Below, piece by piece: positions 1-53,498 of a stretch of DNA of 64,000 nt (positions are counted from its first letter, which is position 1; every line of letters begins with the position of its first letter). The stretch covers positions 1,184,001-1,248,000 of the forward strand of contig OY760183.1 in the NCBI GenBank assembly GCA_963663275.1, written 5' to 3'. A program made the position numbers and the translations under genes. Under the pieces are notes generated by a model that saw only the letters and a program-made list of their open reading frames with translations, was not told the DNA's origin and made no database searches. This DNA is from Chloroflexota bacterium (GTDB taxonomy: Bacteria; Chloroflexota; UBA11872; VXOZ01).

Positions 1-2
1 TG

Positions 3-308
3 AGATTTGGGACGGGAGACGTTTCTGAGCAAGTCGTGCTCTGCACGATTGGGATCTTCGGCGTGCTACTCTCGGTGTCGTGGCTTGGCGTGCTTCACTC
101 CTATCGCCAACTCAATTCAGAAAAGTTCCGCGTGTTGCACGAGTTGGAGAAGGAACTAGCCTTTCCGTTCTTTACGAAAGAGTGGGACCCGGCTGAAGAG
201 GGGGAGAAGAGCAACCGCTACTGGCGGTTGACAAAGGTTGAACGGTCACTGCCGCTCATATTCGGCCTACTCTTCTTGGGACTTCTCGCCTATTCGTTCT
301 TCCAGTAG
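3..308 (+). CDS. Small integral membrane protein, 5'-truncated by the window; resembles the 'RipA-family octameric membrane protein' type found in defence loci
   Basis: Frame open from position 3. TM-W..SYRQLNSEKF.V..ELEK.L...F..EW-loop-TM pattern, recognised from memory of the family. Confidence 0.6.
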   Translation, partial: RFGTGDVSEQVVLCTIGIFGVLLSVSWLGVLHSYRQLNSEKFRVLHELEKELAFPFFTKEWDPAEEGEKSNRYWRLTKVERSLPLIFGLLFLGLLAYSFFQ

Positions 309-416
309 TTCTGGCTGTCCCCTGTTTTCGCCTCGGCGGCAGTCGTAGCACGCCAAAGTACACTCTTTGTCTAGGTAGCCAAAGTAGCCGGATGCGACGA
401 AGCGCCCGCGTCTCAC

Positions 417-788
417 TCAAGGCCGAGCCAGGCGCTTCTTCAGGTTATTCCACTTCCAGGCCACGACTTCGCCCGCGCCGTCGATCGGCTTCGGACACTG
501 CCTCTGCTTCCGCAATTGGAAGCGCTTCTTGCCAATCCGCTTCGCCATCTTCACCTCCCGCCGCACTCCTTGGGCTTGGTGCGTGTGCTCGCCCAGCAGC
601 ACGATGAATACCTGGCAGCGTTTAATTGCCGCCCGCGCCTTTTGCTGCCACTCGGGTGTCGCTTGCTGCAGAGACATGTCATTGATTGAGAAAGGGGAAT
701 CCGGCAGTTTCGATTGCCCAATGAGCGTGTCCTTCAGTTCCGCGTCATGATCGTAGTCGAAGCTGACGAATACTCTGGTCTTTGCCAT
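417..788 (-). CDS. Stand-alone TIR-domain protein (ThsB/MTH538-like, DUF1863)
   Basis: RVFVSFDYDHD start, FIVLLGEHT strand and GVRREV with putative catalytic Glu; RBS GGAG upstream. Confidence 0.85.
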   Translation of the reverse strand: MAKTRVFVSFDYDHDAELKDTLIGQSKLPDSPFSINDMSLQQATPEWQQKARAAIKRCQVFIVLLGEHTHQAQGVRREVKMAKRIGKKRFQLRKQRQCPKPIDGAGEVVAWKWNNLKKRLARP

Positions 789-894
789 GGTGAAGTGTCA
801 CTCCTGACTGCAGACTGCTGCCTGACGACGCCAACTTGAGCATACACCTTGACGATAAGAGCATCGCCACGGCGCACGTAAAGTGTCAGTTTCC

Positions 895-1389
895 TTAGTC
901 CGTGAATAGTTTCAATTGCGTTCCAATTTCAGCGTTGGCCTTTGCCCTGGACAAATGACGACACCCCGACCAACTGTCTTCACAAGGCTCCATGCTTACC
1001 GCAAGATCAGTTCTCTGTTCCCCGTCGATTACCACCTGCCCGTCAATCTTCGTCGTCGTGCGCATGGCAGACGCCAAGCTGCGATAACGTCTTGGCAGCA
1101 CGTGTTCAACTCCATCTGGCGCGCGAAGGTGCGCGTGATAGTGGGGTGGAGGCGGAATTCCCCTCGGGTTGCTTTCCGTTGCAAACTCGTAACGGCACGC
1201 CGCCGGACTGTCTTCACACGGCTCCATGCTTATTGTATAATCATCTCTCTTCACACCATCAATACTTACACACCCTTGAATTCGACTCACTGAACGCATG
1301 GCTGATGCCAAACTGCGAAATTGCGCAGGCAATACACGCTCAGTACCGTCCGGCGCGCGAAGATGCGCGTGGTAGTGGGTAGCGGGCAT
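895..1389 (-). CDS. Hypothetical protein with two tandem copies of a ~65-aa HxHxH...Cx6C domain
   Basis: GGAGG RBS before ATG at 1389. HYHAHLRAPDG...RSLASAMR...IDG...SMEPCEDS...CR occurs twice, 234 nt apart. Confidence 0.75.
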   Translation of the reverse strand: MPATHYHAHLRAPDGTERVLPAQFRSLASAMRSVSRIQGCVSIDGVKRDDYTISMEPCEDSPAACRYEFATESNPRGIPPPPHYHAHLRAPDGVEHVLPRRYRSLASAMRTTTKIDGQVVIDGEQRTDLAVSMEPCEDSWSGCRHLSRAKANAEIGTQLKLFTD

Positions 1390-1471
1390 ATTGTACCTCC
1401 AATCGTGTCTATACAATTAGACCGACTAGACTGACTCACGGCATGATGGGCAGTTATCCATTACTTCTCGG

Positions 1472-1545
1472 CCCATGTGGGACGTGACGTCGTAGCTGAT
1501 GGTAAAGCCCAATTCCTTGTCGGTGAAGGCGTAGTGTTGAGCAAA
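1472..1545 (-). pseudogene. Degenerate duplicate of the methyltransferase 3' end
   Basis: Translates FAQHYAFTDKELGFTISYDVTSHMG versus MTase LAEHYGITDEELDFIINYDIKYRMG. Ungapped match to 2617-2690, about 54/74 nt by hand count. Confidence 0.85.
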
Positions 1546-1552
1546 AGAAGAA

Positions 1553-2581
1553 TTACAATTGCGATAACTCATCCAGGAAGTCTTGCTTCTGCCGCATCGT
1601 GAATACGCGGCAGTTGTATTCCTGATCAAGATGGGTCTGCTTAATCAATTCGGCAAAGTAACTCTCGGTGGCGAGCATGTCTGCGTATGGTAGGACTAGC
1701 GCGGTGATATGAAAGTCGGCCATTTGAGAGGGCTCAGGCTCGTCGTCATGGTAACTCAGGATATCCTTCGCTCTAAGTTTGGCGAAAATCGAGATGAATG
1801 GCGTGTTTGAAAACTGGCAAGATTCTAGGAACATCTCAATCCCGTCACCCTGATTGCAAATCCACTCCAATTCATAGTATCGGCGCAAGGCTTCCTTGCC
1901 TACTTCAGTAAAGAGAGGTTCGTATTGAGAAGTCTTGAAAAACCCTCGCTGGACAGCATCAGTCACTCCAAAGTGTAGCTCTCTGAACATTTGAACGCGG
2001 CCTAGTCTAACCGCTTCTTCATAGCTGTGCCCCTCTTTCCATACCTCGCCCTTGAACTTACGGGAAAGGGAAGTTTGGATGCCGTCTCGCGTTTGTTTCG
2101 CTTCCTTACTATACTCGACCATTATGGGATGCTCTCTGCTGCTGATATCAGGTGACTGTTGCACCGAAATGTCGGGATCCCTGTTGAAGGGGACATACCA
2201 CCAAGGAGTACGTGGTACATCCTGCCCGGCGAATTCTGAGGCCGCCGCTAGAAGCTGTTTGTGGTTGACATGAATGTATGAGTTGAATGACAAGCCACGG
2301 CTGAGCGTGCCAACGACAAAGGAAATTGGGGCGCGTAGCTTGGGACTGAATGAGGCCTCTCTATGATGAAATTCTGAAGTTGGGCAGGCGAACTTGCCAT
2401 TAGATACTCCAGTATGTAGAGCCGAGGACAGATGACTATAGAAGGCGCTATCTTTGCTGAGCCGACCGATGATCTGCGACTTTGTAATCTCGCTGATCCA
2501 GTTCTGATCGAGATAGACAATGGGTTTCTTACCGCGTCGCTGCATTAGAAGCCTCTCTTTCGTAGGCTGATCCAATTTCAA
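1553..2581 (-). CDS. Hypothetical protein, PIN-like fold with large insertion
   Basis: N-terminal VYLDQN, HHREA, C-terminal DFHITALVLPYADMLATE. Lower GC than the core. Start may be ATG 2545. Confidence 0.6.
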   Translation of the reverse strand: MKLDQPTKERLLMQRRGKKPIVYLDQNWISEITKSQIIGRLSKDSAFYSHLSSALHTGVSNGKFACPTSEFHHREASFSPKLRAPISFVVGTLSRGLSFNSYIHVNHKQLLAAASEFAGQDVPRTPWWYVPFNRDPDISVQQSPDISSREHPIMVEYSKEAKQTRDGIQTSLSRKFKGEVWKEGHSYEEAVRLGRVQMFRELHFGVTDAVQRGFFKTSQYEPLFTEVGKEALRRYYELEWICNQGDGIEMFLESCQFSNTPFISIFAKLRAKDILSYHDDEPEPSQMADFHITALVLPYADMLATESYFAELIKQTHLDQEYNCRVFTMRQKQDFLDELSQL

Positions 2582-2597
2582 TGATACCCCTAAGTGG

Positions 2598-5500
2598 TCA
2601 ATTGATGTTCGTTCTTCCCATGCGGTACTTAATGTCGTAGTTGATGATGAAGTCTAGCTCTTCGTCGGTGATGCCGTAGTGCTCCGCCAAGACCTTGTCA
2701 AGCTTGTCGATTATAGCCTTGCTCTGACGGGGGAATGTCTGTTGTATTGTTAGTTTGCCTTGCTTCTTCAGTTCCGACTTAGCCTTCATGTCTTCCATCA
2801 GTTCGTGCGCTATGATTGACAGTCTCTCTAGTCGGCCAGTGTCAGCAGTATCGAACCTTATCATTCTCACTTCGCGCTGATTGAGGTTCCTGCAATCTGA
2901 GAAGCACTGCACCATCCAGGAAAACAGGGATGTATTCAGAATACCAAGCGCCCCATCTCTAATCAAAGCACTTTCGAAACAGACTTCCTTCAGTTCACTC
3001 GGCTTACGTAGCTTCCCCTTCGTATCGTAGATTGCGGGTATGAAATTGAGTATCTGGAGAAAGTGGCTAAGTTTCCTTGTGTACCAAAGGGAGTGCTGTT
3101 GTGAACTCGTTCTCGATTGTTGAGGAACCACCGGAAAACGACTAACTTTGCGGAGTATGGAAGCCTCCAAAGCATGACCAATCTTGGCAATGCCGGCGTC
3201 ATTGCTGACGCGCGTAGAGTCAATGAACGCCAAATCGTGAAAGAGGTATTGGCGGGCATCGGTGCGCCACTTGTTGTAAACCGTCGCAAATGACCTTCTG
3301 GGCCTTGCGCCCTTATCGACAAGGATGATCTGCAGCCGGTTGTGGGGCATCCCATCGAACAGTCTGCCCGGATTGTCGCTGTAACTACTAACGACCACGT
3401 TGCCTGCGTCCATCAGCAGCTTACGCAGCGAAGCGTACCCATCAGTGCACACGGCAGAGGCAGGCACAATCATGCCAAGATGCCCATTAGTTGCGAGATT
3501 GAGCGAGCGCTCCCATGTCATCGCGTAGAGATTGCCGCAAACCTCCGTTTCAAGTCCTCGTACAGAATAGTCACTCTTCACCTTGCTGTACTCCACGTAC
3601 GGTGGGTTCCCGATCACCACGTCGAAGCCGCCTTTGCTCATGATGCCGTAGAACTCGGTGAACCAGTGGAAGGGTTGGTGGCTGGCGCGCCAAGGGGTGT
3701 AGGCGGTGGGTTTGTGGGGAGCGATGCCGTACTCGGCGGCCAGGAGGCGGTCCAGTTCGTCGTCCAGGCGTTGGAGGCGGTCGCGGAGGGCCTGCTTAGC
3801 GGCGGCGGTCACCTCCCCGCCGAGCGTGGTCTGCTGCCGGCGGAACTGGTTGAAAGCCGCGCTGGCGATCTCGGCCTCTTCTTCGATGCGGGCCAGGGCG
3901 GCGCGGTCTTCATCGAACATGGCGCGGCGTTGGCCGTCCGGCGTGATAGTCATGGCTTGGCGCACGGCGTCCAGGGAGGTGAAGCCCACCAGCGTGTTGC
4001 CGGCGCGGACGTTGAAATCCACGTCCGGCAGCGGCTCGATCTGGTCGTAGCGTTCCAGTTGGGCCACCAGTTTCAGGAAGAGGCGCAGTTTGCAGATTTC
4101 CACCGCTTCTTCCATGATGTCCACGCCGTAGAGGTTGTTCAGCACGATTGACTTGAGGATGAAGTACCGCTGGCTGGGATGCTTCTCCACCTGCGCCAGG
4201 ATGCGGCGGAAGTCCCTCAGGTGCTCCGGGCTGCGCTTGCGCTCGGACCTCTCGGCGTCGTCCAGGAAGCCGCGCATCCCCTCCAGGCAGGCGGTGTAGA
4301 GCGGCTCCAGCACGTTCAGGGCGGCGAACAGGAACGCGCCGGAACCGCAGGTGGGATCCAGCACGGAGATTCCGGTGTGGGTGCGTTCGCGGTTGCCATA
4401 GAGCGCGTGCCAGAAGGCGCGCAATAGCTCCGGCCCCTCGCTCTGGGCGATGACGTCCCGGGCGAACCGCTCCACGTCCAGGTTGAGGGTGATGAGGTCG
4501 TTGACCCCGGTGACCTCGCCGGCGGCCAATTTGCCCCTGACCTCCGCGTGGCGCTGGCGGCGGGCGATGACCTCGCGCCAGGTCTCGGTGGGCAGGGCGT
4601 AGTCGTCGGGCGCGGGTTGGTTCCAGTCGCCGCGTTTGGCAACGTCGTGGATGCCGGCGGCGATTTCTTGCGGCAGGGCGTAGGCAAAGCCGCGGTCGTT
4701 GTCACCCTCACCCCGGCCCTCTCCCTCAGAGGGAGAGGGAGTGGAATTGGGAGCGGAAGTGGGAGAACCCTTGTTGGCAGTGGGAGAGGCAGAAGATTCG
4801 AGGCGGGTGGGGTTCTGGGCGTCGCGGGCGTTCCAGGTGATGCCGTGGCCGACGGCGGGGTAGATGTAGCGATCGGGATCGTCGCGCAGCATGCGCCAGA
4901 CGCCGCCGTCCTCGCCAAACGCCACCGGACACTCCCGCTTGGCGGCGTCGAAGAGGAAAGGGACGACCGTGTTGCGCGCAATGTAGCCGGTGATGTCCTC
5001 TTTGGTGTAGTACGCGCCCATCTGCTTCTGGTTGACGTACTTCTCGAAGATGTAACCCAGCACGTCGGGGTTGATCTCGTTGTCCTCCCGGTGGGGCCGC
5101 TCGTCCAGATGCCAGCGGTAGGCGTCGAAGAAGGCGAAGACCCGCTCGAAGGCGGCGTCCGGGATGGCGATGCCGGGGTTGTCGCGCTCCAGGTCGTGCA
5201 CGTCGAAGAGGCCGCCGTTCAGAAAAGGTACTCTGCCCAGCAGGGCGGTGAGTTCCGGCGCGCGCTGGGCTTCGGGCTGGCCGAGACCTTCGTGGAACAG
5301 GCGCAAGAGAAAGAGGCGGTAGAAACGGTGGAAACGCCTGCCGCCACGCGCTTCGACAGGCTCAGCGCGAACGGATTGGGAGTCAGGCTCGGCGCGAGCG
5401 GAATGGGGATCGGGAGACCCGTGGGCAGGCTCGGCGGGAGCGGATTGGGGATCGGAAGACCCTTCGGCAGGTTCGGCGCGACCGGAATTGGCCTCAGGGG

Positions 5501-6281
5501 GAACGGCATAGCCCGCGAGGAGATCGGGAACCAGGGAACCATGCATGGGCGCGTTGCCCGCGGCCGGTTCGGGAGCGGCGGGAAGCGCCTGCACCGCTTG
5601 CAGTTTTCGGCGCAGGTAGTCCGGGTCGCCGTCCAGGAAGCGTTGCTTCTGGATGAAGTAGACGAACATCATGCGGTTGAGCATCAGCGACGCGTACCAG
5701 TCGCGGTCGACGCGGGCCGTGATGCCTTCGATGAAGTCGCTGAAGGCGGTCAGTTCTTTTCTGAATTGTTCGTAGAAGCGTTTGGTGACCTTCTCCACGT
5801 CGAACGTGCCGCGGACGCGGGAGCTAACCTCGGCGATGCCTAGCCCCCGGGCTTCGTCCTCCAGGTCGAAGGCAATGGCCTGGAGGCGTTGGAGCAGGGA
5901 TTCGCCGCTCTGCCCCGCGTGGAACTGCTGCTCACGGCAGGCGGTAGGCTTGCCGTTCTCGCGCTTGACCCACTGCCAGACCTGCGTGGTCTGCTCATCG
6001 TCAACGAAGATGACCAGGTGCTCGAAGGCGCTCTTGGCGGCCTGGACTTCAATCTTTCGCCGCACCGGGTACGGCGGCACCGCGCCGTCCGGGCCCGGCG
6101 CGCACGTGAAGACGACGAAGCCGGCCTTCTCCGCCACCGGCCGGAGAGCGTAGCCGAAACCATCCACTTCCACCATCACAGGGGCGGCCTCATAGTGGTT
6201 CCAGCCCAGGCCTTCCACAAAGAGGCTCGGGAAATCGAAATCCTGGAGGTAAGGGCGGAGTTCGTTGATACCGACTTGCAT
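2598..6281 (-). CDS. Large N6-adenine DNA methyltransferase with C-terminal target recognition domain (Eco57I/type IIG-like)
   Basis: LDPTCGSGAFL (motif I), GVDI, GFDVVIGNPPY (motif IV), GAYYT, PFLNGGLF. Confidence 0.92.
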   Translation of the reverse strand: MQVGINELRPYLQDFDFPSLFVEGLGWNHYEAAPVMVEVDGFGYALRPVAEKAGFVVFTCAPGPDGAVPPYPVRRKIEVQAAKSAFEHLVIFVDDEQTTQVWQWVKRENGKPTACREQQFHAGQSGESLLQRLQAIAFDLEDEARGLGIAEVSSRVRGTFDVEKVTKRFYEQFRKELTAFSDFIEGITARVDRDWYASLMLNRMMFVYFIQKQRFLDGDPDYLRRKLQAVQALPAAPEPAAGNAPMHGSLVPDLLAGYAVPPEANSGRAEPAEGSSDPQSAPAEPAHGSPDPHSARAEPDSQSVRAEPVEARGGRRFHRFYRLFLLRLFHEGLGQPEAQRAPELTALLGRVPFLNGGLFDVHDLERDNPGIAIPDAAFERVFAFFDAYRWHLDERPHREDNEINPDVLGYIFEKYVNQKQMGAYYTKEDITGYIARNTVVPFLFDAAKRECPVAFGEDGGVWRMLRDDPDRYIYPAVGHGITWNARDAQNPTRLESSASPTANKGSPTSAPNSTPSPSEGEGRGEGDNDRGFAYALPQEIAAGIHDVAKRGDWNQPAPDDYALPTETWREVIARRQRHAEVRGKLAAGEVTGVNDLITLNLDVERFARDVIAQSEGPELLRAFWHALYGNRERTHTGISVLDPTCGSGAFLFAALNVLEPLYTACLEGMRGFLDDAERSERKRSPEHLRDFRRILAQVEKHPSQRYFILKSIVLNNLYGVDIMEEAVEICKLRLFLKLVAQLERYDQIEPLPDVDFNVRAGNTLVGFTSLDAVRQAMTITPDGQRRAMFDEDRAALARIEEEAEIASAAFNQFRRQQTTLGGEVTAAAKQALRDRLQRLDDELDRLLAAEYGIAPHKPTAYTPWRASHQPFHWFTEFYGIMSKGGFDVVIGNPPYVEYSKVKSDYSVRGLETEVCGNLYAMTWERSLNLATNGHLGMIVPASAVCTDGYASLRKLLMDAGNVVVSSYSDNPGRLFDGMPHNRLQIILVDKGARPRRSFATVYNKWRTDARQYLFHDLAFIDSTRVSNDAGIAKIGHALEASILRKVSRFPVVPQQSRTSSQQHSLWYTRKLSHFLQILNFIPAIYDTKGKLRKPSELKEVCFESALIRDGALGILNTSLFSWMVQCFSDCRNLNQREVRMIRFDTADTGRLERLSIIAHELMEDMKAKSELKKQGKLTIQQTFPRQSKAIIDKLDKVLAEHYGITDEELDFIINYDIKYRMGRTNIN
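4705..4739. repeat. Family A palindrome, in frame inside the MTase
   Basis: ccctcaccccggccctctccctcagagggagaggg; encodes PSPSEGEGRGEG. Confidence 0.85.
5345..5490. repeat. Family F repeat (cttcgacaggctcagcgcgaacgg) plus ~42-bp tandem derivatives, in frame inside the MTase
   Basis: Encodes AEPAEGSSDPQSAP-AEPAHGSPDPHSAR-AEPDSQSVR-AEPVEA. Same motif is intergenic at 52.7 and 58.0 kb. Confidence 0.8.
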
Positions 6282-6298
6282 TGCAGGATCAATTGCTC

Positions 6299-6697
6299 TC
6301 AGAGGCGGCGCGCAGCGGGGAGGGAAGCCATCTTGCGATCCAGCGTGAGCGTCTCCAGCCCGTGGTGGGCGTAGTCATCGGTAATTAGCTTGTCCAAGAG
6401 GCCGGGCCCTCCAGAGGCGACCAGGGCTTCGATTATGGGTTGCCCGTTCAGCGGGACAACCAAGCCACTGGTGAGGGTATTGCGGAGTTCAGCGCGGGCG
6501 TCTTCCTTTGTGGCGCCGTAGTGGTGTTGGGCTGCCATGTATGCCTCGCCAATTACCTGGTTGGACGCAACAATCTCGGCGCCGCCTGCGGCCAGCGCGC
6601 TCAACTGTTCCACGCAGTACGCGTACGTGTCGGGAGGTCGGCCGGTTACCAACCGCAGAAGCACAGACGTGTCAATCCCGATACGCAGTCGGATCAT
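6299..6697 (-). CDS. vapC: PIN-domain (VapC-like) toxin
   Basis: IGIDTSVLLRL, VIGEA, LLDKLI, TLTLDRK; overlaps the upstream antitoxin. Confidence 0.85.
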   Translation of the reverse strand: MIRLRIGIDTSVLLRLVTGRPPDTYAYCVEQLSALAAGGAEIVASNQVIGEAYMAAQHHYGATKEDARAELRNTLTSGLVVPLNGQPIIEALVASGGPGLLDKLITDDYAHHGLETLTLDRKMASLPAARRL

Positions 6698-6956
6698 ACC
6701 CCTCGTCCCGGAACTTGCGGATGTCCAGCGGCTCGATGTTTGGGTCGATCTTGTCGCGCAGCGTGCCCAGTTTCGAATAGTCGATGCGCTTGGGCTTGGG
6801 CGCGCACCCTGCGGGGTCCTCGCGACTGGGCCTCAGCGTGTATCCGCCACCAGCGGCCTCCACCAACTCAAGCTGGTCGCCGGGGCCCACGCCCATGGCC
6901 TCCAACACGGGCTTGGGAAAGGTTACCTGGCCCTTGGCAGTGATCTTGACTATCAT
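6672..6956 (-). CDS. AbrB/MazE/SpoVT-family antitoxin
   Basis: KITAKGQVTFPKPVLEAMGVGPGDQLE; GGAGG RBS before ATG 6956. Confidence 0.88.
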   Translation of the reverse strand: MIVKITAKGQVTFPKPVLEAMGVGPGDQLELVEAAGGGYTLRPSREDPAGCAPKPKRIDYSKLGTLRDKIDPNIEPLDIRKFRDEGYDPTAYRD

Positions 6957-7030
6957 GTAAGTCCTCCTTAACGCTAGGCTATCACGGGATAGACGGCGCC
7001 GCAATGCGCCAGGCGCAAACCGGGCGTTCC

Positions 7031-10000
7031 CTATGCCTCGTCGCCGGCGAACAGCCCCAGGGAGCATATGATTTGCGGCTCTTGGCTCTCGTCATCGTTT
7101 TCGTCGCGCGTCAGGCAGAGACGGTCCGCCTCGTGCAGACCGATGACGATTTCGGCCAACTGCGCGTCGTCCACGCCGCTGCGGAGTTGCCGGTTCAAGG
7201 TATCCACAGCCGACGGGCGCAGAGGGTCATGGTAGATGTCGTCGATGGCCTTGTGCAGCGCGTCCACGTCGAACAACTGTCCCCTGATGGAGCCGGCGTA
7301 GGCCCTGAGCCGGGTGTAGGCGCGGAAGCGGGCGCCGGAGGGCCGCCCCAACTGGCCGCCGACTCGCTTTTCCTCCCTGACGGCGTGGGCGATACCCTCG
7401 GCCACCAGCCGGTGATGGTCCGGGTGGTGGGGTTGCGCGGGCGTATCCGCCCGGCACTCGGCGGCGGCCAGGATGGCGAGTTGCGATTCGGTGATGCTCT
7501 CGCCGCCGCGGTCAACGTAGGCCAGGGCGTCATTGCCGTCCGCGGTGCGCGTGAAGACCAGGACGCCCTCAGGCCGCTGGGCGATGGGCGTGTGCCGGCG
7601 CGAGGAGAAAACCACGTCCGGCAGGTCTTTGACGGCCTTTTCCAGGCGCGGGTCGGCGTTGATGGCGTTCTTCCAGATCTGGTAGGCGTGGGAGGCCAGG
7701 TCAACCTCGCCGTCGGGCTCGCCGTCCAGGATGCCGGCGCGTTCGTGGTAGAGGTTGAGGACGGCGTCGTCGTCGGCCTCGTCTTCGAAGAAGGCCTCGT
7801 CCGCGCCCACCACCTCGGCGTTCTCCTTGAGCCGTGCGCGCACGCGGCTGCGCAGGTCGATGATGCGCTCCACACCCTCCGCGGGCAGGAATGAATAGCA
7901 GAGTATGTCCTCCGCCCGCTGGCCGATGCGGTCCACGCGGCCGGCGCGCTGGATGAGGCGGATGATGGCCCACGGCAGGTCATAGTTCACCACAACGGAG
8001 CAATCTTGGAGATTTTGGCCCTCGCTCAGCACGTCGGTGGCGATGAGCACGCGCAGTTCGTCAGCTTCGGCCACGGCCTGCCGCTTGTCGTTGCTGACCG
8101 GGCTGAAGCGCCAGGCGAGTTGCGTGGGATCTTGGGCGCTGCCCGTCGCGCTCGCCATGGCGCCGATGCCTCTGGCGCTGAGTTTAGATTCCAGGTAGAG
8201 CACGGTGTCGGCGAATTGGGAAAAGACCAGCACCTTGCGGTCCGCTAACGTCTCGGTGAGGAGTGTGTGGAGCGCGTCCAGTTTAGCGTCGCGCGCCGGG
8301 TCCCACTCCCCGTTAGCGTGGAGGATGTCCACCAGAGCGTCGGCGTCCGACCGAAGGTCCCTCTCCAGGGAATCGAGGAAGAGATCGGAGCGGAGCCACT
8401 TGAAGCGCGTTTGGTACTGTTGCCTGTAGGCCGCGTAGACCTCAGCCGCGCGTTCCGCTAGGCCGGCCGCCGTCCAGGCGCCGGCGGTCTCCTGGATCTC
8501 CATGTCCTCCCGCTCGCCATCGTCCGCAGCGAAAAGCGATTCTGTTCCCTCGTCCGCGTCGGTCAATCGGAGGTCGAGCAGGGCGGCGTCCTGCGACCCA
8601 ACGGGAAGCGGCAGGCCGTGCTCGATGGCGTGGAGGAAGACGTAGTTGCGCAGCGCGTGCCGCTCCACCGACTGCATGAATGCCGCGCCGCTGCTCTCCA
8701 GACGCTTGAAGAGGTTCGTGCGGCAGAAGCCCATCAGCCGCTTGCCCGCGCGCGAAAGGTCGTCTAGCTGGCCGGATTCCTCTGTGCTGGGCGGGACTTC
8801 AGGGTTTGCCTTGAGATAGTTGCCAAGGCCGTAGCGAGGCAGGTGAAGTTCGTTGACGGTTGCCACAACTTCCTGCGAATAGAGCCTGGCAAATTGGTCG
8901 TTTGGGTCCGACTCATCGATGGTGAAGGCTACCGTCTTGGGCACGCGGGCCGGGAAGAAGGACCTGCTGCCGTCTTCATAGGTGAGGAAACTCCGCCCGG
9001 TAGCTTTGTCCGTTGCCGCGTAGTTGTCCTGGATAAAGCTGCGGGTGCGGCGCACCAGATAGAGCCGCATGAGGTCCCGCCAGTCATCGGGATGCTCGCT
9101 GTTGTCGAAGGCTGCCAATGAGTCCGGCTGGGCTTGGTGCAGTCTGTTGAACTCGATCGTGCCCACCTGGCGCAGATACCGTTCGGGCCGGATACCCAGA
9201 CTGGCATCGTCTTTCACGAAGAGGCGCAACTGGTTGGATAGGTCTTTGTAGGACTTATTGTAGGGTGTGGCCGAAAGCAGAATGCACTTGCTGTCATTGG
9301 CGCGAACGTACTCCTGGATGGCGCGGTAGCGCCGGCCCTCGCGGTTGCGGAGATTGTGGCTCTCGTCGATGATCACCAGCCGGTAGCGGCGTTCGTTTGG
9401 CAAGACGCTTTGCACGCTGCTCAGCGAGAGCGTCTTGGCCCGCAATCCATAGCGGTGCGCGTACTCTTGCCACATAGGCGCCAGGTTCTTGGGGCAGATG
9501 ATCAAGGTTTCCAGGTCGTAGTCGTCCTCGAAGATGCGGGCCACGGCGGTTGCCATGAGAGTCTTGCCCAGGCCCACCACGTCGCCGATGAGCACGCCGT
9601 TGCGTTTGTTCAGGTGATGCGCCGCAATCTTGACCGCAGCGGCCTGGAAGTCGAATAAGCGGTTGCCAAAGACCTTGGGAATGTTGAATTCGGCCAGGCC
9701 TGCCCGGGCCTCGTGGGAGAGGTGGTAGGCCATCTTGAGATAGATGTGGTAGGGAAGTATCAGTGCTTCTCTCGCCCAGCTATCTTCAATGATTTGAAGC
9801 AGTTCGCCCGTGATGTCTACGCAGAACCGGTCGTTCCACCTGTCCTCGAACCACTGCTTGAGCTTTACCGTGGCGTCTTGGTCGAGTACGTCAACGTTCA
9901 GTTCACCTTGGCCCGCCAGGCCGGCGAGGGTCAGGTTGCTGCTGCCCAGGAAGCCGATGATAGGGTTGACAGGATCATCGCGGTGCAGCAGGTAGAGCTT

Positions 10001-10423
10001 GGCGTGGAGCGGATGGCGGAGGAACAGCTTGACGATGACCTTCCTGGCGCGAAGCTGGGCCGCCAGCCGCTGCAAGGTCCGTTCGTCTTCATTGGTCGGC
10101 GCGCCGATAGTGAGTTGGCGGCGCAGTTCCTCTGCCAACTGCATCCGCAAGCGGTGCGCGGCTTGGTTGTCCATGCCCTTAGGCGCGCCGCTCAGGCTCA
10201 GCGCCAGCCTGAGTTCCTCGTCAGGCGGGCGCTGCATGCCGATGAGCACGCGGCAGGGGCCGCTCTTCTCGTCCCAGCGGTCCACGTACGGCGCCAAGCC
10301 GCCCCAGCCCCTCAGGTTGAAGTAGCCGACGCAGAAATCCGCCCGGAAAGACAGGGCGAGGGCTTCCTGCAAGGCGGGCAGCAGCTTGGCGCCGGCTTCT
10401 AGATTGTCGAAGATGCGCGGCAT
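7031..10423 (-). CDS. PLD-nuclease domain + SNF2-type helicase (restriction subunit)
   Basis: HAKLY...GSSNLT PLD motif, DVVGLGKT Walker A, DESH, SATP, FSQF, SEGQNLQ, QRAGRVDRIG. Confidence 0.93.
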   Translation of the reverse strand: MPRIFDNLEAGAKLLPALQEALALSFRADFCVGYFNLRGWGGLAPYVDRWDEKSGPCRVLIGMQRPPDEELRLALSLSGAPKGMDNQAAHRLRMQLAEELRRQLTIGAPTNEDERTLQRLAAQLRARKVIVKLFLRHPLHAKLYLLHRDDPVNPIIGFLGSSNLTLAGLAGQGELNVDVLDQDATVKLKQWFEDRWNDRFCVDITGELLQIIEDSWAREALILPYHIYLKMAYHLSHEARAGLAEFNIPKVFGNRLFDFQAAAVKIAAHHLNKRNGVLIGDVVGLGKTLMATAVARIFEDDYDLETLIICPKNLAPMWQEYAHRYGLRAKTLSLSSVQSVLPNERRYRLVIIDESHNLRNREGRRYRAIQEYVRANDSKCILLSATPYNKSYKDLSNQLRLFVKDDASLGIRPERYLRQVGTIEFNRLHQAQPDSLAAFDNSEHPDDWRDLMRLYLVRRTRSFIQDNYAATDKATGRSFLTYEDGSRSFFPARVPKTVAFTIDESDPNDQFARLYSQEVVATVNELHLPRYGLGNYLKANPEVPPSTEESGQLDDLSRAGKRLMGFCRTNLFKRLESSGAAFMQSVERHALRNYVFLHAIEHGLPLPVGSQDAALLDLRLTDADEGTESLFAADDGEREDMEIQETAGAWTAAGLAERAAEVYAAYRQQYQTRFKWLRSDLFLDSLERDLRSDADALVDILHANGEWDPARDAKLDALHTLLTETLADRKVLVFSQFADTVLYLESKLSARGIGAMASATGSAQDPTQLAWRFSPVSNDKRQAVAEADELRVLIATDVLSEGQNLQDCSVVVNYDLPWAIIRLIQRAGRVDRIGQRAEDILCYSFLPAEGVERIIDLRSRVRARLKENAEVVGADEAFFEDEADDDAVLNLYHERAGILDGEPDGEVDLASHAYQIWKNAINADPRLEKAVKDLPDVVFSSRRHTPIAQRPEGVLVFTRTADGNDALAYVDRGGESITESQLAILAAAECRADTPAQPHHPDHHRLVAEGIAHAVREEKRVGGQLGRPSGARFRAYTRLRAYAGSIRGQLFDVDALHKAIDDIYHDPLRPSAVDTLNRQLRSGVDDAQLAEIVIGLHEADRLCLTRDENDDESQEPQIICSLGLFAGDEA

Positions 10424-10520
10424 TTGGGCTTCACCTTTGCCTCTTCCCGGCGCGCGTTCCTATGGCAAACGCCGCCCGTACACTCCTGACCGGACGTGCG
10501 CGCCGCCGCCGTCATCGGAT

Positions 10521-10976
10521 TCACACCGTGTTCTCCTCTTCCAGGAGGTCGCGCAACACGACGACGGGCAAGCGTGGCACGCGGCGAAAGTCCGAGTCGT
10601 TGGTGAGGAAGAGCGCGCAACCGGCGTCAAGCGCGGTTGCGGCGTGGAGGGCGTCGGGTGTTTGCAACCCGGTATCGGCCCGCAGACGGGCAGCGTCTTC
10701 AAAGACCGCATATGGGGCGTCCAACAGCACTACCGCCTTTGACCCAAAAAGCTCGCGGTACTGCGCTTCAATGTCCGTGTTGCCATCCTGTAGTGGCTTT
10801 ACAAGCGTTTCAACGACAATAATGGGGCTGCTCACGATGATGAGATTCCCATCCTGCGCGTGCCGCCACAATGGTTCCAGTAGCGTGCGGTATGGCTCTA
10901 TGCGCTCCACGCTATAGATGAGGACGCTGGCATCGAGATATATCAGGCCGCTATCGGGAAGAGTTAGCGGTCCCAC
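10521..10976 (-). CDS. vapC: PIN-domain (VapC-like) toxin
   Basis: IYLDASVLIY, VETLVKP, TPDALHAATA, FLTNDSDF. Confidence 0.92.
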   Translation of the reverse strand: MGPLTLPDSGLIYLDASVLIYSVERIEPYRTLLEPLWRHAQDGNLIIVSSPIIVVETLVKPLQDGNTDIEAQYRELFGSKAVVLLDAPYAVFEDAARLRADTGLQTPDALHAATALDAGCALFLTNDSDFRRVPRLPVVVLRDLLEEENTV

Positions 10977-11197
10977 GACGCCTTCTCTTGTGCCAAGTAC
11001 GCTCTCACCTCTGCCGCCGTTTGGAACAGCCGGCGCTCCGGCCCGCTGTTCAGTATCTCGATTGCGGAGCGGCCCCGCTTAGCGGATTCGTGCCGCACGA
11101 TCACGTCCACCGTCTGCCCCGGTTCCAACTCCGGGCAGACTATTTCCACCTTGCCGCCCGGCAAGACTGTAGTCTTCCGCTGGATTGTCTCTTGCAT
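10964..11197 (-). CDS. Antitoxin partner of the PIN toxin
   Basis: Own GGAGG RBS and ATG 11197; TTVLPGGKVEI..PEL.PG.TVDV; C-terminal E.ASWD overlaps the toxin start. Confidence 0.75.
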   Translation of the reverse strand: MQETIQRKTTVLPGGKVEIVCPELEPGQTVDVIVRHESAKRGRSAIEILNSGPERRLFQTAAEVRAYLAQEKASWDR

Positions 11198-11359
11198 TGT
11201 GGTCCTCCCTGCTTGCGGCGCTTCCCCTTCGTCGAAGTGGCACAGCACCGCATCCCGCAGCATATCCTTGAGTTGCTCCCAGTTGTCGGCTTGGGTGAAG
11301 ATGCCGTAGCCGCCGTCGCGAGATTTCCGCACTTGAAAGGTTATTTCAGCGTCTGTCAT
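11198..11359 (-). pseudogene. Shortened HicB-like antitoxin remnant fused in frame to the downstream antitoxin
   Basis: EITFQV...GGY.GIFTQADNWEQLKDMLRDAVLCHFDEG; RBS GGAG and ATG 11359; no stop before the next gene. Confidence 0.55.
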
Positions 11360-11488
11360 CGCCTGTCTCCTCATCAGTGTCAGTATACTACGCTTGTACG
11401 ACTCCCCTAGCATCGCTGCCGCGTTTGGTTCTTTCTGAGGCTGGCTCGCGTGTGCGGCACGCGGCCGCGCGACGCCTTGCGCGGAATG

Positions 11489-11896: not shown

Positions 11897-12985
11897 TTAC
11901 GCCGGTACGGCGCCGCGCGCCAGGTAGAGCAGCGCCAGCACGGCAATGCCCCAGAGCGCCACGCTGGCCAGCAGCCACGGATCGCGGAAGAGCAGGGTTT
12001 CGGGGGCGTCGCTGCCGCCGGGATTGCGCGCGGCGCGGAGGTAGCGCAGCAGGCCGAAAGCAACGAACGGCGTGGTGACGATGAGCCGCGGGTCGCCGAA
12101 CGTGGCGGGTGCGAAAAGCGTGTAGAGCACGTAGGCAACGGCGGTGGTGGCCGCCACCAGCCGCAGCCAGCGGTCCAGCGAGGCGGTGGTGTACCGCGCC
12201 AGGTTGCGGCGGTGGGCGGCGGCGCCGGTGCCCAGCAACGCCAACTCGCCCCGGCGCTTGCCCAGGATGATCAGCAGGGAGAGCAACAGCGTGCAGATGT
12301 AGAGCCAGGGCGAGATGGGCGTGAGCACGGCGGCGGTGCCGGCGGCGGCGCGCAGCACGAAGCCGAGGGCGATCAGCGCCGCGTCCAAGAGCGCCACGTG
12401 CTTCAGCCAGGCGCTGTAGGCCAGGTTCATGGCTACGTAGAGGGCGAGGATCGCGCCCAGGACGACCTGAAGCAGGAACGCGCCCGCCAGCGCGCCGCCC
12501 AGCAAGACGACGGCGGCGCAAAGCGCGGCCGGCAGCGGCAACGCTCCCGCCGCCAAGGGACGCTTGCGCTTGAGCGGGTGCGCGCGGTCGGCCTCTACGT
12601 CCAGGATGTCGTTGACCAGATAGATGCCGCCGCTGGCCAGGACGAAAAGGCCGAACGTGAGTACGCTGGCAAGCACGGCGTCACGGTCCGTGAGTTGCTG
12701 GGAGAAGATGACACCGGCGAAGACGAGCACGTTCTTCACCCACTGCTGCGGACGGGTGGAGCGCAGCAGCGCGATGGCGATGGCTAGCGGGGAGCGTTGG
12801 GCCGCGCTTGGCGGCGCGCCGGTCGTCCCGGTCGAGGAGTGCGGCGGCTGCCCCTCACCCCGGCCCTCTCCCCAGGGAGAGGGAGTCTTCGCGCCTGGCG
12901 GCGCGGGATGTGTGGCGGACCGGTAGCCTGCGCCTTTGGCAGGCTTGGAGCGGCTGCTGCCGGTCGTGGAGGAGTTGACGTTCAC
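11897..12985 (-). CDS. UbiA-family prenyltransferase (decaprenyl-phosphate phosphoribosyltransferase-like)
   Basis: RPQQWVKN, YLVNDILDVEADRAHPLKRKRPLAAG, multiple TM helices; GTG overlaps the tilS stop. Confidence 0.9.
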   Translation of the reverse strand: MNVNSSTTGSSRSKPAKGAGYRSATHPAPPGAKTPSPWGEGRGEGQPPHSSTGTTGAPPSAAQRSPLAIAIALLRSTRPQQWVKNVLVFAGVIFSQQLTDRDAVLASVLTFGLFVLASGGIYLVNDILDVEADRAHPLKRKRPLAAGALPLPAALCAAVVLLGGALAGAFLLQVVLGAILALYVAMNLAYSAWLKHVALLDAALIALGFVLRAAAGTAAVLTPISPWLYICTLLLSLLIILGKRRGELALLGTGAAAHRRNLARYTTASLDRWLRLVAATTAVAYVLYTLFAPATFGDPRLIVTTPFVAFGLLRYLRAARNPGGSDAPETLLFRDPWLLASVALWGIAVLALLYLARGAVPA

Positions 12986-13071
12986 GGCTGCCCCTCACCC
13001 CGGCCCTCTCCCCAGGGAGAGGGAGTTTCTTCCCAGGGAGAGGGAGCTTTCGCGCCTGGCGGGGTGGGATG
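12844..13071. repeat. Two direct copies of a family A-containing unit spanning the tilS/ubiA junction
   Basis: cggctgcccctcaccccggccctctcccccagggagagggag at about 12845 and 12985; both read PSPWGEGRGEGQP. Confidence 0.85.
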
Positions 13072-17766: not shown

Positions 17767-17891
17767 TGCTGTCTCCTTACGTGTGCGGCGCATACGACGC
17801 GGACGGTCGCCGCGCGATGCCCGAGATGAAAGTCCTCTGCCGCGCCCAGAGGCGGGGGACAAGCCCCCGCGCTACGGTACTATGTTTGGGT

Positions 17892-20538: not shown

Positions 20539-21804
20539 TGTACAGTCCGGGGACATGGGTAACAGTTATTCAGGGAGATAGGTTACACATTTTGTTCACT
20601 GAGGTCTACCGTTCTTATCGGATTGACAGCGAAGTAGACGTTCCAGACGCCGTCGGTTTGCGTGGGTCGCAGGGCGACGCGGGTGTGGGCGAAAGCTCGC
20701 CCCACGCGGAGGGTCTTGCCCTGGAACGAGATGCGGCCGCTGACGTCGACGGCGCGCACCTGGTCGTCGGGAGCGTAGGTGATGGGGGGCAGCGTTTCGG
20801 GAAAGGGCTGTGGACTGGGCGTGTACCGGCTGACGGGCGTGTTGAGCGTGAGGGCGTGGTGCGGGCGTTCCCGGTTGTAGAAGTGCCGCCAAGCGTCGAA
20901 GGCGCGCTGGCAGTGCTCCAGGTTGGTGAAGGTGCGACCGGCCAGGACTTCGCTTTTCAGGGAGCGGTGGAAGCGTTCCAGCTTGCCGAGGGTCTGGGGA
21001 TGGTAGGGACGGCTGTGAAGCACCTTGATGCCCAGGCGCATGAGCCAGACGGTGAGCGGCGTGAAGGGATGGGCGCTGTCGTTGCCCCAGGGGGCGCCGT
21101 TGTCCATGAGCATGGCCGCAGGCAGGCCGTAGCGCCGAAAGACGCGGGTGAGGCGCTCCTGGACGGTCTGACCCCGCTCGTCGGCGCAGGCCTCCACAGC
21201 CAGGTTGTAGCGGGAATGGTCGTCGAGCACGGTGAGCGGATGGCAGCGGTCGCGAGACATGGCGAAATGCCCCTTGAAGTCCATCTGCCAGAGTTCGTTG
21301 GGCAGCGGGCGCTCAAAGCGAATGAAGGGCATGCGCTTGGCGCTCTCGGCCGGGTCGATCAACCCGTGGCGCTTGAGAATGGCGTTGATGGTGCTCCTGG
21401 CGGGCACGTCGGCGTAGCCGCGGTTCCGCAGCATCCGGCCCAGCGCGTCCGCGCCCTTCCCCGGATGTGCCAGGCGCAAGGCGATGATGTGCCGCTCCAT
21501 CTCTGGACGCGTGCGCTGTGGGCTGGTGTGCGGACGCCGCGACCGGTCCCCCAGGTTCTCCATCCCGCCCTGCCTGTAGCGCGTGCGCCACTTGTAGCCG
21601 GTCTTGCGGCTGATGCCCATACGCTTGCACAGTGCGCTCATGCTCACCTCACCCGTCAGCATCACGGCTATAAACTCTTCCCGCTCAGACATAGGTGTAC
21701 TCACTTTCCACGACATGGTCGTCCTCCTCTAGTGACGAATTCCCATGCCTTATGGTGTAACCTATGTCCCTGAAAATGTGTTACCTATGTCCCCGGGCTC
21801 TACA
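20539..21804 (-). mobile_element. IS481-family insertion sequence, 1266 bp
   Basis: Ends TGTACAGTCCGGGGACATGGGTAACA / TGTTACCTATGTCCCCGGGCTCTACA (23/26 inverted match), inner secondary repeats, and tccct duplicated on both flanks. Confidence 0.95.
20583..21716 (-). CDS. IS481-family DDE transposase
   Basis: HTH GISRKTGYKW; WQMDFKG, MDNG, GKLERFHRSLK; YNRERPH. Confidence 0.96.
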   Translation of the reverse strand: MSWKVSTPMSEREEFIAVMLTGEVSMSALCKRMGISRKTGYKWRTRYRQGGMENLGDRSRRPHTSPQRTRPEMERHIIALRLAHPGKGADALGRMLRNRGYADVPARSTINAILKRHGLIDPAESAKRMPFIRFERPLPNELWQMDFKGHFAMSRDRCHPLTVLDDHSRYNLAVEACADERGQTVQERLTRVFRRYGLPAAMLMDNGAPWGNDSAHPFTPLTVWLMRLGIKVLHSRPYHPQTLGKLERFHRSLKSEVLAGRTFTNLEHCQRAFDAWRHFYNRERPHHALTLNTPVSRYTPSPQPFPETLPPITYAPDDQVRAVDVSGRISFQGKTLRVGRAFAHTRVALRPTQTDGVWNVYFAVNPIRTVDLSEQNV

Positions 21805-22231
21805 TCCCTCAGGGAGAGGGGACAAGAGGCCGCTCCGTTCGACTCCCTCTCCCTCAGGAGACCTTTGCATAACTCTGTCATTCCGGTGAAAACCGGAATC
21901 CAGAGTGCTTTTGCAACTAAACGTTGCATGGTTTCAAGCCATTTCACCTCCCATCCCAACCTTCCCTCCAGTGGGGAAGGGGTTACGCAAAGGTCTCCTC
22001 AGGGAGAGGGGACGAGAGGCCGCTCCGTTCCACTCCCTCTCCCTGGGGAGAGGGCCGGGGTGAGGGGAAAATTAGCGCCGATCGTACACAATTCGCACTG
22101 TTCGGCAGAGTTACGCAACGGTCTCCTGAGGGAAGGGGAGCAGGCGCAGATCCCCCTCACCCTAGCCCCCTCCCTCAGGGAGAGGGGACAAGAGGCCGCT
22201 CCGCTCCGTTCCCTCTCCCTGAGGGAGAGGG
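21805..22231. repeat. Cluster of family A palindromes
   Basis: Repeated ccctctccc..gggagaggg(ccggggtgaggg) units separated by ac(a/g)agaggccgctccg linkers. Confidence 0.85.
21858..21997. mobile_element. 140-bp MITE with GAGACCTTTGC.TAAC terminal inverted repeats
   Basis: gagacctttgcataac...gttacgcaaaggtctc flanked by ctcag on both sides, inside a family A hairpin. A lone end also occurs at about 22109-22125. Confidence 0.85.
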
Positions 22232-22237
22232 AACGGA

Positions 22238-23653
22238 CTAAGAGCCCGTCTCCGGTCTTTCGTCCACGAAGCGTTTGAACTTGTAGCCTCCGGCGATTTC
22301 GCCGAAGCCGTCCGCCGGCAGGAACTCAATCTCGGGGCTGACCTCCGTTTCGGCGCGCACGGTAGCCGCGATCTCCTGCCGCAAGCGTGCGCGTTCCGGT
22401 TCGGCGCACGCCGCGCGCACGCGCAGCACGTCGGCGGAGAGCGGGTCGTTGGGCGTTTGCCGCGTAATAACCACCTGGTACTCCTTCACCCCGCGGCTCA
22501 GCAGACCGGAGAGGCCCTCCAGCAGCACGGCCGGATTCACCAGCGTGCCCTTCACCTTGGTCAGGCCGTCCACCCGGTAGGGGCTGCCCAGAAAGCGCGG
22601 CTCATGGCGGCCGCAGTGGGGGCATGGCTTATGGGTCAGCGCCACCACGTCGCCGGCCGCGTAGCGCGGCAGCACCGTGCCCCGGCGGTTGAGGTGGGTA
22701 AGCACCAGCAAGCCCCGCGCGCCGTCGGGCACGGGCGCGTAGGTCTGCGGATCCACCACCTCGAAGAAGAACTGCGCCGGCGTCGGCAGGTGCGCGCCGC
22801 CGTTTTCGCGGCACTCGATGGACGGACCCATGAGTTCGGTCATGCCGTAGCCGTTGTTGACCGTTACGTGGGGGCTGCCCATGCGCGTCAGCCGCGCGCG
22901 CATGTCGTCGCGCATGGCCGTGGGGCACGGCTCGCCCATGGCCATCACCAGCCGCACGGCGCTGAAGTCTCTGCCCAGCGTCTCCGCGCGCATAATCACC
23001 CGCCGCACGTAGGAGGTGATGCCCCAGAGCACCGTGGCGCGCTGCCCCTCGATGAGGTCGATCGCCTCGTCCATGCGCCGGTGCACGGGAAAATCGCCAT
23101 AGGCGCGGCCGGTGAGGGCGCTGAGCAGCCGGCTGCCAACCGCCATGGCCCCCCACGTGGCGCTCAAGAAGCCTTGATGGGGTACCGCGCTCAGGGGAAA
23201 GAGATTCATCACCGTGTCCGCCGGGCCGATGCCGGCGATGCGCGCGCCGCGCCCCAGCAGGTCGATGCGCGCAAACCGGTCGTGCACCGTATCGTAGAAC
23301 GGCGTCGGCTCGCCGGACGACCCCGCCGTGTAGATGATGTCCGCCAGCGTTCTTTCTTCCACGCTCAGGCCCGCTGCGCGGCTGGAATCCAGGCGAAACG
23401 ACTCCGGGTCGCGCACGTAGTCCTGCTTGGTCATGGGCGGCAGCTTGGGGATGTCGTCCACCGTGCGGAAGTCTTCCGGCGTCAGCCCGCGCTCCCGCAA
23501 GACCCGCCGCGCGTAGGGATGCGCCCGCGCCCACAGCGGCGCCATGCGGCTCAGGTACGCGTTCTGTTGGTCGCGCAGCCGCTCAAGGTAGGCGGTTGTT
23601 CCAGCCACGGCAGGTGATGCCGGCGCGTGCGGGCGCTGCGTAGATGTGCTCAT
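22238..23653 (-). CDS. Phenylacetate-CoA ligase (PaaK)-family AMP-binding enzyme
   Basis: KLPPMTK.D, YTAGSSGEP, YGMTE, RYAAGDV, KVKGTLV.P, KFKRFVDER; start uncertain. Confidence 0.85.
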   Translation of the reverse strand: MSTSTQRPHAPASPAVAGTTAYLERLRDQQNAYLSRMAPLWARAHPYARRVLRERGLTPEDFRTVDDIPKLPPMTKQDYVRDPESFRLDSSRAAGLSVEERTLADIIYTAGSSGEPTPFYDTVHDRFARIDLLGRGARIAGIGPADTVMNLFPLSAVPHQGFLSATWGAMAVGSRLLSALTGRAYGDFPVHRRMDEAIDLIEGQRATVLWGITSYVRRVIMRAETLGRDFSAVRLVMAMGEPCPTAMRDDMRARLTRMGSPHVTVNNGYGMTELMGPSIECRENGGAHLPTPAQFFFEVVDPQTYAPVPDGARGLLVLTHLNRRGTVLPRYAAGDVVALTHKPCPHCGRHEPRFLGSPYRVDGLTKVKGTLVNPAVLLEGLSGLLSRGVKEYQVVITRQTPNDPLSADVLRVRAACAEPERARLRQEIAATVRAETEVSPEIEFLPADGFGEIAGGYKFKRFVDERPETGS

Positions 23654-27605: not shown

Positions 27606-27714
27606 GGAGAGCGATGCTTCCATTAGGCGGTTGCGTGGCGCGCAACGGCGGACTCTCGTCCGCACACACGATCCAGAGGCAAGGCGCTGAGCTACTTCAC
27701 GGAGGAACAAGAGC

Positions 27715-50534: not shown

Positions 50535-50610
50535 GGCACTGCTCCTGGGTTCCGTTGCCGCCCGCGGCGGCGCGTACGCAGAGCGGCCGCGCGGGCCGGC
50601 TGCCCGGCCG

Positions 50611-51795: not shown

Positions 51796-51880
51796 TGGTT
51801 ATCCTTACCTTCTCTCACGTATTGCCGCCGCCGCGCAAAGCCAGACAAGCGTATCCGGCGCTTTCGCGCAGTCTGGCACC

Positions 51881-51910
51881 ATTATAGTCAATGCCAGCGT
51901 CAAAAGTAAA
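51881..51910 (-). promoter_or_regulatory. Putative rpsA promoter
   Basis: Perfect TATAAT on the minus strand with TTTACT 18 nt upstream. Confidence 0.5.
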
Positions 51911-52033
51911 GGCAGCAGAGGCCGCCGCCGACCCCGGCGCGGCCCCGGTCTTGGCGAAAAGCGCCGCCTATCCGCCGCGCCGTCCATCTGGTATGCTGGG
52001 GAATGCACAGCCGCAAGCGAGGGAGAGCCGCAC

Positions 52034-53495: not shown

Positions 53496-53498
53496 GCT

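Follow-up and report, generated by a model that had tools for sequence, protein, structure and literature searches.

In genomic islands at gene 3′ ends and in integron arrays, the gene end is regenerated and tandem cassettes are separated by repeats; these systems have an integrase and a fixed crossover core. Furuta et al. (2010, PMC2853133) describe inserts at restriction-modification (RM) loci that are shorter than 20 kb and bounded by direct repeats of >30 bp and variable length, with no mobility gene and with the mechanism left open; one repeat lies inside an M gene, and type IIG genes show allelic diversity in their target recognition domains (TRDs). For the type VI secretion clusters and Rhs orphan arrays of Vibrio cholerae, Kirchberger et al. 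(2017, PMC5361080) propose sequential effector displacement by homology-facilitated illegitimate recombination. Here, we describe a conserved methyltransferase (MTase) gene end and its partial duplicates in a 64,000-nucleotide (nt) stretch of a Chloroflexota genome (assembly GCA_963663275.1, contig OY760183.1, positions 1,184,001 to 1,248,000), referred to below as the window and numbered from its first base.

The MTase belongs to an operon made up of a PLD-SNF2 helicase-nuclease, a type IIG-like MTase and a DprA-like gene. The 3′ part of the MTase gene consists of a variable TRD followed by ∼25-40 conserved codons, which we call the tail. Partial copies of this tail, termed orphan tails, stand among variable genes downstream of the MTase. 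The duplication crosses phyla, is specific to the tail and marks a slot for defence cargo; the end of the MTase gene is a recurring gene-insertion joint in many bacteria.

A duplicated methyltransferase gene end

The MTase and its tail copies at this locus are as follows (coordinates beginning G000:C1 lie in the same genome, left of the window):

2598-6281, minus strand: type IIG-like N6-adenine MTase gene, 1227 amino acids (aa), NPPY motif at aa 892 (PADLOC PDLC03628 REase_MTase_IIG, 1184 bits; Pfam Eco57I)
3582-6281, minus strand: conserved MTase core, with a GC content at third codon positions (GC3) of 0.84
2721-3581, minus strand: variable MTase region, putative TRD, GC3 0.58, exchanged independently of the core
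2617-2720, minus strand: native conserved tail (...HYG.T.EELDFIINYDIKYRMG), proposed recombination arm, recognised by conservation ranking in homologues
1472-1545, minus strand: orphan tail 1, 54/74 nt identical, decayed, with differences at all codon positions and a longest exact run of 8 nt against the native tail
G000:C1:1183234-1183305, minus strand: orphan tail 2, matching the native tail at 60/75 nt, with its own stop codon and placed ∼700 nt to the left of window base 1

The initial annotation had reported an ungapped 74-nt repeat of ∼73% identity that lies 7 nt past the stop of a PIN-like gene, so that the two copies bracket that gene, and both observations hold. The copy at 1472-1545 and the native sequence at 2617-2690 share 54 of 74 nt (73%) without a gap, and the copy starts 7 nt beyond the stop of the open reading frame (ORF) at 1553-2581, cargo 1 below. 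It keeps the MTase frame (HYAF...HMG versus HYGI...RMG). Apart from the native sequence itself and this copy, the best placement of the 74-mer in the window matches 41 of 74 positions on the plus strand and 37 on the minus strand, and 1000 shuffles of the 74-mer reached a maximum of 38 matches against positions 1-2597. A whole-genome tblastn search recovered orphan 2, which is better preserved than orphan 1 and closes a TIR/8xMP/TIR cassette. These 74-75 nt repeats stand 1.1 and 3.4 kb from the native tail. Judged by its sequence, orphan 1 is now likely too decayed to act as a present-day substrate, since its longest exact run is so short.

We give next to no credence to chance similarity or an assembly artefact, and for this window that explanation is refuted. 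The 54 matches far exceed the shuffle maximum, and reversed-sequence controls gave no comparable hits. An artefact, raised in the initial annotation as a possible undoing of its proposal, is dismissed because 20 of 74 sites differ between the copies and congeners have relics at the same locus. Among the copies found elsewhere, the one in L021 extends to the contig end and may be an artefact of that record.

Recurrence and specificity of orphan tails

Recurrent orphan tails flanking variable genes had been put forward as the main test of the initial proposal, and such orphans are real across phyla and tail-specific. Searching metagenomes with the TRD and tail yielded 80 loci, 59 of them with at least 1 kb downstream; orphan tails occur in 11 of these 59 (10 distinct), and reversed sequences gave no hit. 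In L027, two nucleotidyltransferase-HepT pairs and HicAB are set apart by three orphans. Scanning GTDB genomes for the pattern returned at least 124 stretches, 78 of those listed with flanks, and many of its matches lie in short frames; this set was chosen by the tail, and other anchors were therefore used too. E. coli genomes gave only a 42-nt intergenic match. Plasmids gave seven records, and the one examined, L204 (pSYSX), has no orphan tail; three of seven matches in viral contigs lack a long upstream frame. The second copy in L017, of 37 nt, was counted as an orphan, while L155 and L181 (interrupted MTase frames) and L166 (a whole paralogue) were scored as orphan-free. Candidate displaced tails in L017, L044 and L073 were rejected as insertions of insertion sequences (three DDE families) in the TRD-coding part of the MTase and were not counted.

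The duplication is confined to the MTase end. In a model-free test, a copy of this end lies downstream in 20 of 128 loci, versus 0/128 for a TRD stretch, 0/71 for the helicase end and 1/68 for the dprA end. Inserts of >300 nt occur at 19 of 66 helicase-MTase junctions, yet no helicase-end copies accompany them; likewise, the helicase-tail control found no orphans in 72 loci (own locus included if its helicase end was recovered), and no helicase-tail duplication lies beside the MazE-like/PIN pair. The difference between tail and helicase has a Fisher's p of 2e-4 after removal of one duplicate, a value that is overstated because the loci are related. A hidden Markov model (HMM) of the tail found 10 orphans in 8 of 69 loci, our own included. 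For six other conserved 40-codon blocks, searched in the same 69 loci, no short orphan turned up, the only hits being the whole paralogue L166 and a frameshift in L035, and five other conserved blocks gave no orphan in the metagenome set.

Several orphans (L018, L242, L062, L255 and L027) carry insertions of 10-35 nt at nearly one place, just before the INYD codons; those of L018 and L242 are similar to one another and have the appearance of small palindromic repeat elements. In three further family members (L013, L147 and L149) the MTase has a different C-terminal tail class, and in two of them a relic of the old-type tail lies downstream. In L149, which like L147 shows the different class, the old-type tail begins 8 nt past the MTase stop.

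Attachment-site and spare-module readings

The initial annotation took the tail for a candidate attachment (att) site. At a true att site, a recombinase supplied in trans would integrate circular cassettes at a core inside the tail, regenerating the gene end. Circle integration does give direct-repeat geometry, tandem arrays as in L027 and copies matching the resident allele, and all but two of 27 orphans reach the INYDIKYRMG end of the model. However, the left ends of these 27 orphans range from column 3 to column 94 of the 120-nt model, with no fixed crossover core or constant boundary. The codon identity of the tail is 0.46, within the 0.40-0.52 of seven other blocks, and thus shows no excess synonymous conservation. 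No integrase family was found in 73 + 31 ORFs picked around orphans with a simple caller. The host genome has only two PF00589 (tyrosine recombinase) genes, both >1.4 Mb away, and no IntI-type integrase near the locus, in agreement with the earlier remark that no integrase is visible in the window. Because the left ends vary, synonymous conservation is not in excess and no recombinase is linked, a site-specific att site is not supported, and we consider it very unlikely.

The likeness once drawn to Rhs orphan modules fails because the orphans carry no variable domain. A tblastn search with pooled TRDs found no TRD remnant within up to 900 nt upstream of orphans, although TRD families outside the pool could escape it. 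Similarly, the block before NPPY has no orphan copies; the orphans do not repeat the conserved junction 5′ of the variable domain and are therefore unable to serve as spare specificities.

The cargo slot

The interval between the MTase and the DprA-like gene is a cargo slot, because the DprA-like gene directly follows the MTase in 7 of 59 loci and the first downstream gene otherwise varies, with 47 clusters in the 59 loci. An empty state, as the initial annotation anticipated, thus exists across species. Genes around orphans encode PIN, HEPN, GmrSD, Schlafen, AAA and Mrr proteins, together with many ORFs that lack a family; the cargo is mostly toxin-antitoxin (TA) and defence-like, as was expected of the genes downstream. 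Orphan tails usually run directly into the next gene. Y1 transposase genes (IS200-like), which we take to be RAYT-like, are the cargo between native and orphan tail in L242, L246 and L275 (L275 by homology to L246).

At our locus the interval spans 5.2 kb. Along the minus strand come, in turn, helicase, MazE/PIN, MTase, cargo 1, orphan 1, a 173-aa ORF, TIR, 8xMP and TIR (these two on the opposite strand), orphan 2, VapBC, DUF2283 pairs and the DprA-like gene:

7031-10423, minus strand: PLD-nuclease/SNF2-helicase fusion, 1130 aa, first gene of the operon (Pfam PLDc_2, SNF2-rel_dom, Helicase_C; PADLOC best HKD+Snf2 C3a139, E 4e-49)
6299-6959, minus strand: MazE-like + PIN toxin-antitoxin pair between helicase and MTase (Pfam PF04014, PF01850)
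1553-2581, minus strand: cargo 1, 330-342 aa, predicted PIN/VapC-like fold split by a helical insertion, GC 0.49, fold from a predicted model
895-1416, minus strand: ORF of 165-173 aa with two internal repeats of ∼62 codons (958-1145 and 1192-1379; 69% DNA identity), from ORF and repeat analysis
417-788, minus strand: ThsB-like TIR protein (Pfam PF08937; 84% in G016, same locus)
1-308, plus strand: 3′ part of an 8xMP membrane-protein gene (Pfam PF24838)
G000:C1:1183446-1183856, plus strand: second TIR gene, left of the window (PF08937)
Left of orphan 2, outside the window: VapBC and DUF2283 TA genes (PF01850, PF10049)
G000:C1:1180795-1181442, minus strand: DprA-like gene, closing the cargo interval (PF02481)

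Cargo 1 has no Pfam hit, yet its structural matches are all PIN proteins in the top rows, which upholds the earlier PIN-like label. Its AlphaFold2 (AF2) model has a pLDDT of 90.5, and the best structural neighbours are VapC/PIN proteins (VapC21, Z 7.7, a middling score). Three acidic residues (D13, D261 and D277 of the 1553-2545 frame, minus strand) are invariant in 29 aligned sequences. None of its 36 homologues besides itself has a Pfam family or a name, Foldseek against the PDB returned nothing at E<=0.001, and the Atlas gave unnamed clusters only. No obvious antitoxin adjoins cargo 1. Homologues occur at the same locus in two congeners, G001 and G010; a cargo-anchored search of metagenome contigs gave 17 stretches and 0 confirmed relatives. 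In run X5, the contig over cargo 1 has a depth of 14 versus 38-67 on nearby contigs, and coverage almost vanishes in part of the TRD; this hints at heterogeneity weakly at best. Runs of small share do not count as evidence here. The 165-173 aa repeat ORF has no Pfam family and no Atlas match at 0.9 or more. The convergent TIR/8xMP/TIR cassette is, from its gene content, a Thoeris-like candidate defence module, 76-84% conserved at the same locus in G016. Elsewhere in the window, two clusters of degenerate internal repeats (44257-45786 and 49382-50535; 66-83% identity) are probably repeat-protein genes.

Probable exchange of the methyltransferase 3′ end and history of the locus

Both the profile match and the partner gene place the MTase in the PDLC03628 type IIG-like family with a PLD-SNF2 partner, and of 401 genomes sampled in the phylum, 41 have its core at E<=1e-40. 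After NPPY, the sequence of 69 full-length homologues is decoupled from the core. Our MTase and that of L148 share 79% in the core and 26% in the TRD, versus 66% and 64%, respectively, for L012. Related loci can be aligned in the core, tail and dprA, and not in the TRD or cargo. The native tail is the fourth most conserved 25-aa block (0.88) in the 69 homologues, a set partly picked by that motif. Mean GC3 in the homologue set is 0.64 in the core, 0.41 in the TRD and 0.65 in the tail. Dispersed palindromic repeat families occur at window positions 4702-4756, 12845-13029, 17842-17879, 21755-22238, 26914-27614, 54305-54582 and 59642-60267; some sit in coding frames, including the N-terminal half of the MTase.

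According to the initial annotation, a new MTase tail arrives with a passenger gene and displaces the old tail. This is plausible at our own locus: GC3 of the MTase steps from 0.84 to 0.58 at NPPY, cargo 1 has a GC3 of 0.56, and both orphans are nearer to other alleles than to the resident tail, which ranks 52 and 31 of 166. The 3′ end of our MTase thus looks replaced, as far as composition and tail similarity tell, and this resident low-GC end was probably acquired with or after cargo 1. As a general rule the claim is not supported, since such cases are a minority: for 17 of 27 orphans (one tie), the nearest of ∼165 tails is the resident one of the same locus. In L246 and L275, homologous cargo stands behind TRDs that cannot be aligned. 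Of the informative sites, 13 pair the tail copies by locus and 0 by position, which would result if the resident tail was duplicated independently or if the copies were homogenised afterwards.

All 16 congeners have the flanking SnoaL gene. The MTase is present at this position in none of the 15 with the interval recovered, and 5 of them carry tail relics at E<1e-4 (6 at E<0.05). Because congeners keep tail relics without the MTase, the copies here are old scars common to the genus. A relic comes after the 3′ part of cargo 1 in G010 and after the TIR/8xMP/TIR cassette in G016; beside the cargo 1 of G001 (55%), no relic was detected. G016 has a breakpoint at the tail end, left of which it resembles our genome and right of which it resembles G012; G012 itself has only a short similar stretch there and no tail. 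Derived bases shared by orphan 1 and the congener relics are too few and too scattered to order events. Elsewhere in congener chromosomes, L184:9680-9790 and L185:10151-10257 (G006 and G011) are well-preserved tails without an intact MTase, and in L185 only small MTase fragments are joined ahead of the tail.

It is rather unlikely, in our judgement, that orphan tails are neutral scars throughout. Repeated replacement and deletion at a defence hotspot would then leave behind right-anchored pieces, derived from dead MTase alleles or tandem duplications, which play no part in later insertion and persist because they bear the stop codon and ribosome-binding site of the next, often addictive, gene. 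Relics that persist and decay in congeners with no MTase in place fit this account, as do the 12 of 21 differences of orphan 1 that fall at codon positions 1-2, the orphans that lead straight into the next gene, and L021 and L070, which resemble short local duplications. However, neutral scarring leaves unexplained why the ends of helicase and dprA are spared, why TRD remnants are already missing from orphans that are still near-identical (92-98%), and why tail copies in L246 and L275 group by locus.

A proposed role of the tail as a short homology arm

We lean towards a model in which host recombination uses the tail as a short homology arm and leaves partial duplicates behind. The tail is suited to this role because no other DNA between the swappable TRD and the cargo slot is conserved. 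Genes would pile up between the MTase end and the DprA-like gene as follows. Homologous or homology-facilitated host recombination, probably acting on incoming DNA, would take the tail as a short arm. New cargo, alone or together with a new TRD, would be joined in front of the resident tail, and a partial tail copy with its stop codon would remain behind the cargo. Repeated rounds could stack cassettes, and no dedicated recombinase would be needed. The presence of ComEC in the host genome fits this model. In our genome, two such events may have left the two orphans, since decayed, and the MTase 3′ end (TRD, tail and C-terminal extension) would be the low-GC allele gained together with cargo 1 or later. 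The duplications, their restriction to the tail, their position and variable left ends, the decoupling of TRD and core and the variety of cargo are shown; by which pathway recombination proceeds, in what order the events took place and whether the joint is active today are inferences.

Several observations weigh against this model. In an MTase-core-anchored set of loci from the phylum (39 fetched, 34 with at least 1 kb downstream), only L147, L148 and L149 have orphan tails (3/34), and most loci have none; moreover, loci are not all independent (L221 = L224, L074 = L158). No tail-to-tail joint was seen among 15 of 83 joints listed from four contig sets (contigs only). Identity in tail DNA correlates with that in the TRD and with that in the core to nearly the same degree (Spearman 0.28 versus 0.30), and the tail is therefore not shown to stay with the core. 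L246 and L275 are a single pair, whose Y1 transposase-like cargo may move by its own route. An arm of 75-110 nt is short, and the longest exact runs of orphans 1 and 2 against the native tail are 8 and 16 nt. The genomes, one per species, contain no same-species pair of empty and filled loci and no event caught in the act. Finally, the arm model leaves unexplained how the first orphan of a cassette forms and why TRD remnants are completely absent.

We consider it quite unlikely that the operon itself drives capture. Here, the PLD-helicase would break the DNA, for instance when specificity changes, and the breaks would be repaired by annealing of tails, perhaps with the help of the DprA-like protein, giving an insertion that duplicates a long stretch of the target. 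The DprA-like gene (PF02481, below or near the cut-off in several cases) was detected in 30 of 69 loci and adjoins the MTase in the empty state; in loci that show both MTase and DprA-like gene, the orphans are located between them, and L018 has two DprA-like copies. Double-strand breaks have been suggested behind long target duplications (Furuta et al. 2010, PMC2853133). However, orphans also occur where the flank shows no DprA-like gene (L027, L070 and L093), and the function of that gene is putative. A wider proposal, which we find similarly doubtful, is that the helicase/MTase/DprA-like operon forms an integrase-free gene-capture platform, with its own proteins promoting tail recombination; a single joint would then take up both TRD changes and TA/defence cassettes, and cassettes bearing a tail copy would pass from allele to allele as integron cassettes do.

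If the tail is a working arm, as we favour, it offers a testable route for growth of defence islands without an integrase, and would tie changes in methylation specificity to the gain of further defence genes. By whichever mechanism it arises, the MTase-dprA interval is a hotspot with sharp boundaries, in a system that is widespread and has hardly been studied. Its cargo differs in almost every genome, often without a Pfam family, and thus provides a list of candidate anti-phage genes, such as the split-PIN protein described here.

Comparison with known systems

One report tentatively assigns GA(m6A)GGC to M.Ssp6803IV (slr6050) of Synechocystis plasmid pSYSX, with a mutant that would not segregate and in vitro activity not shown (PMC6105098). 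The pSYSX MTase in our set (1100 aa) fits slr6050 by plasmid and length. It shares 50.9% identity over 693 aa with our MTase and has the same helicase partner with a VapC pair between; unlike our locus, it has no orphan tail and a different TRD. Just downstream of this Synechocystis homologue (L204, pSYSX 51619-55295) is a ThiF/E2/multi-ubiquitin cassette with helix-turn-helix (HTH) and IrrE genes. MANTIS (Gao_RL) is described in its preprint (bioRxiv 10.64898/2026.09.23.753747) as an adenine MTase with a helicase-nuclease effector that needs the AAA+ ATPase MtsA and MtsB. Our locus is alike in its MTase and helicase-nuclease; no AAA+ gene was found among the ten ORFs scanned (1-11413), a scan in which Mts profiles were not searched.

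Our literature search found nothing on orphan tails of this MTase family; most subscription papers and the supplements of Furuta et al. (2010) and of the MANTIS preprint lay outside it. The class of mechanism, long target duplication with homology-facilitated displacement, is already known. Unlike gene-end islands and integrons, the locus shows neither an integrase nor a fixed crossover core. As in the V. cholerae arrays (PMC5361080), a conserved 5′ anchor precedes a variable 3′ domain, and arrays are pushed downstream with no integrase; there, an immunity gene or variable domain remains, whereas here a conserved tail remains without a variable domain. The features given by Furuta et al. (2010), namely a direct repeat of >30 bp, an insert of <20 kb and no mobility gene, are all found here with PIN-fold, TIR and 8xMP cargo. 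In the inserts described there, RM genes are the passenger and the target varies; at our locus, by contrast, the MTase is the target and R and M genes are not the insert. Across phyla a single fixed place, the MTase 3′ end, is the target, with TA and defence genes as passengers, and arrays accumulate.

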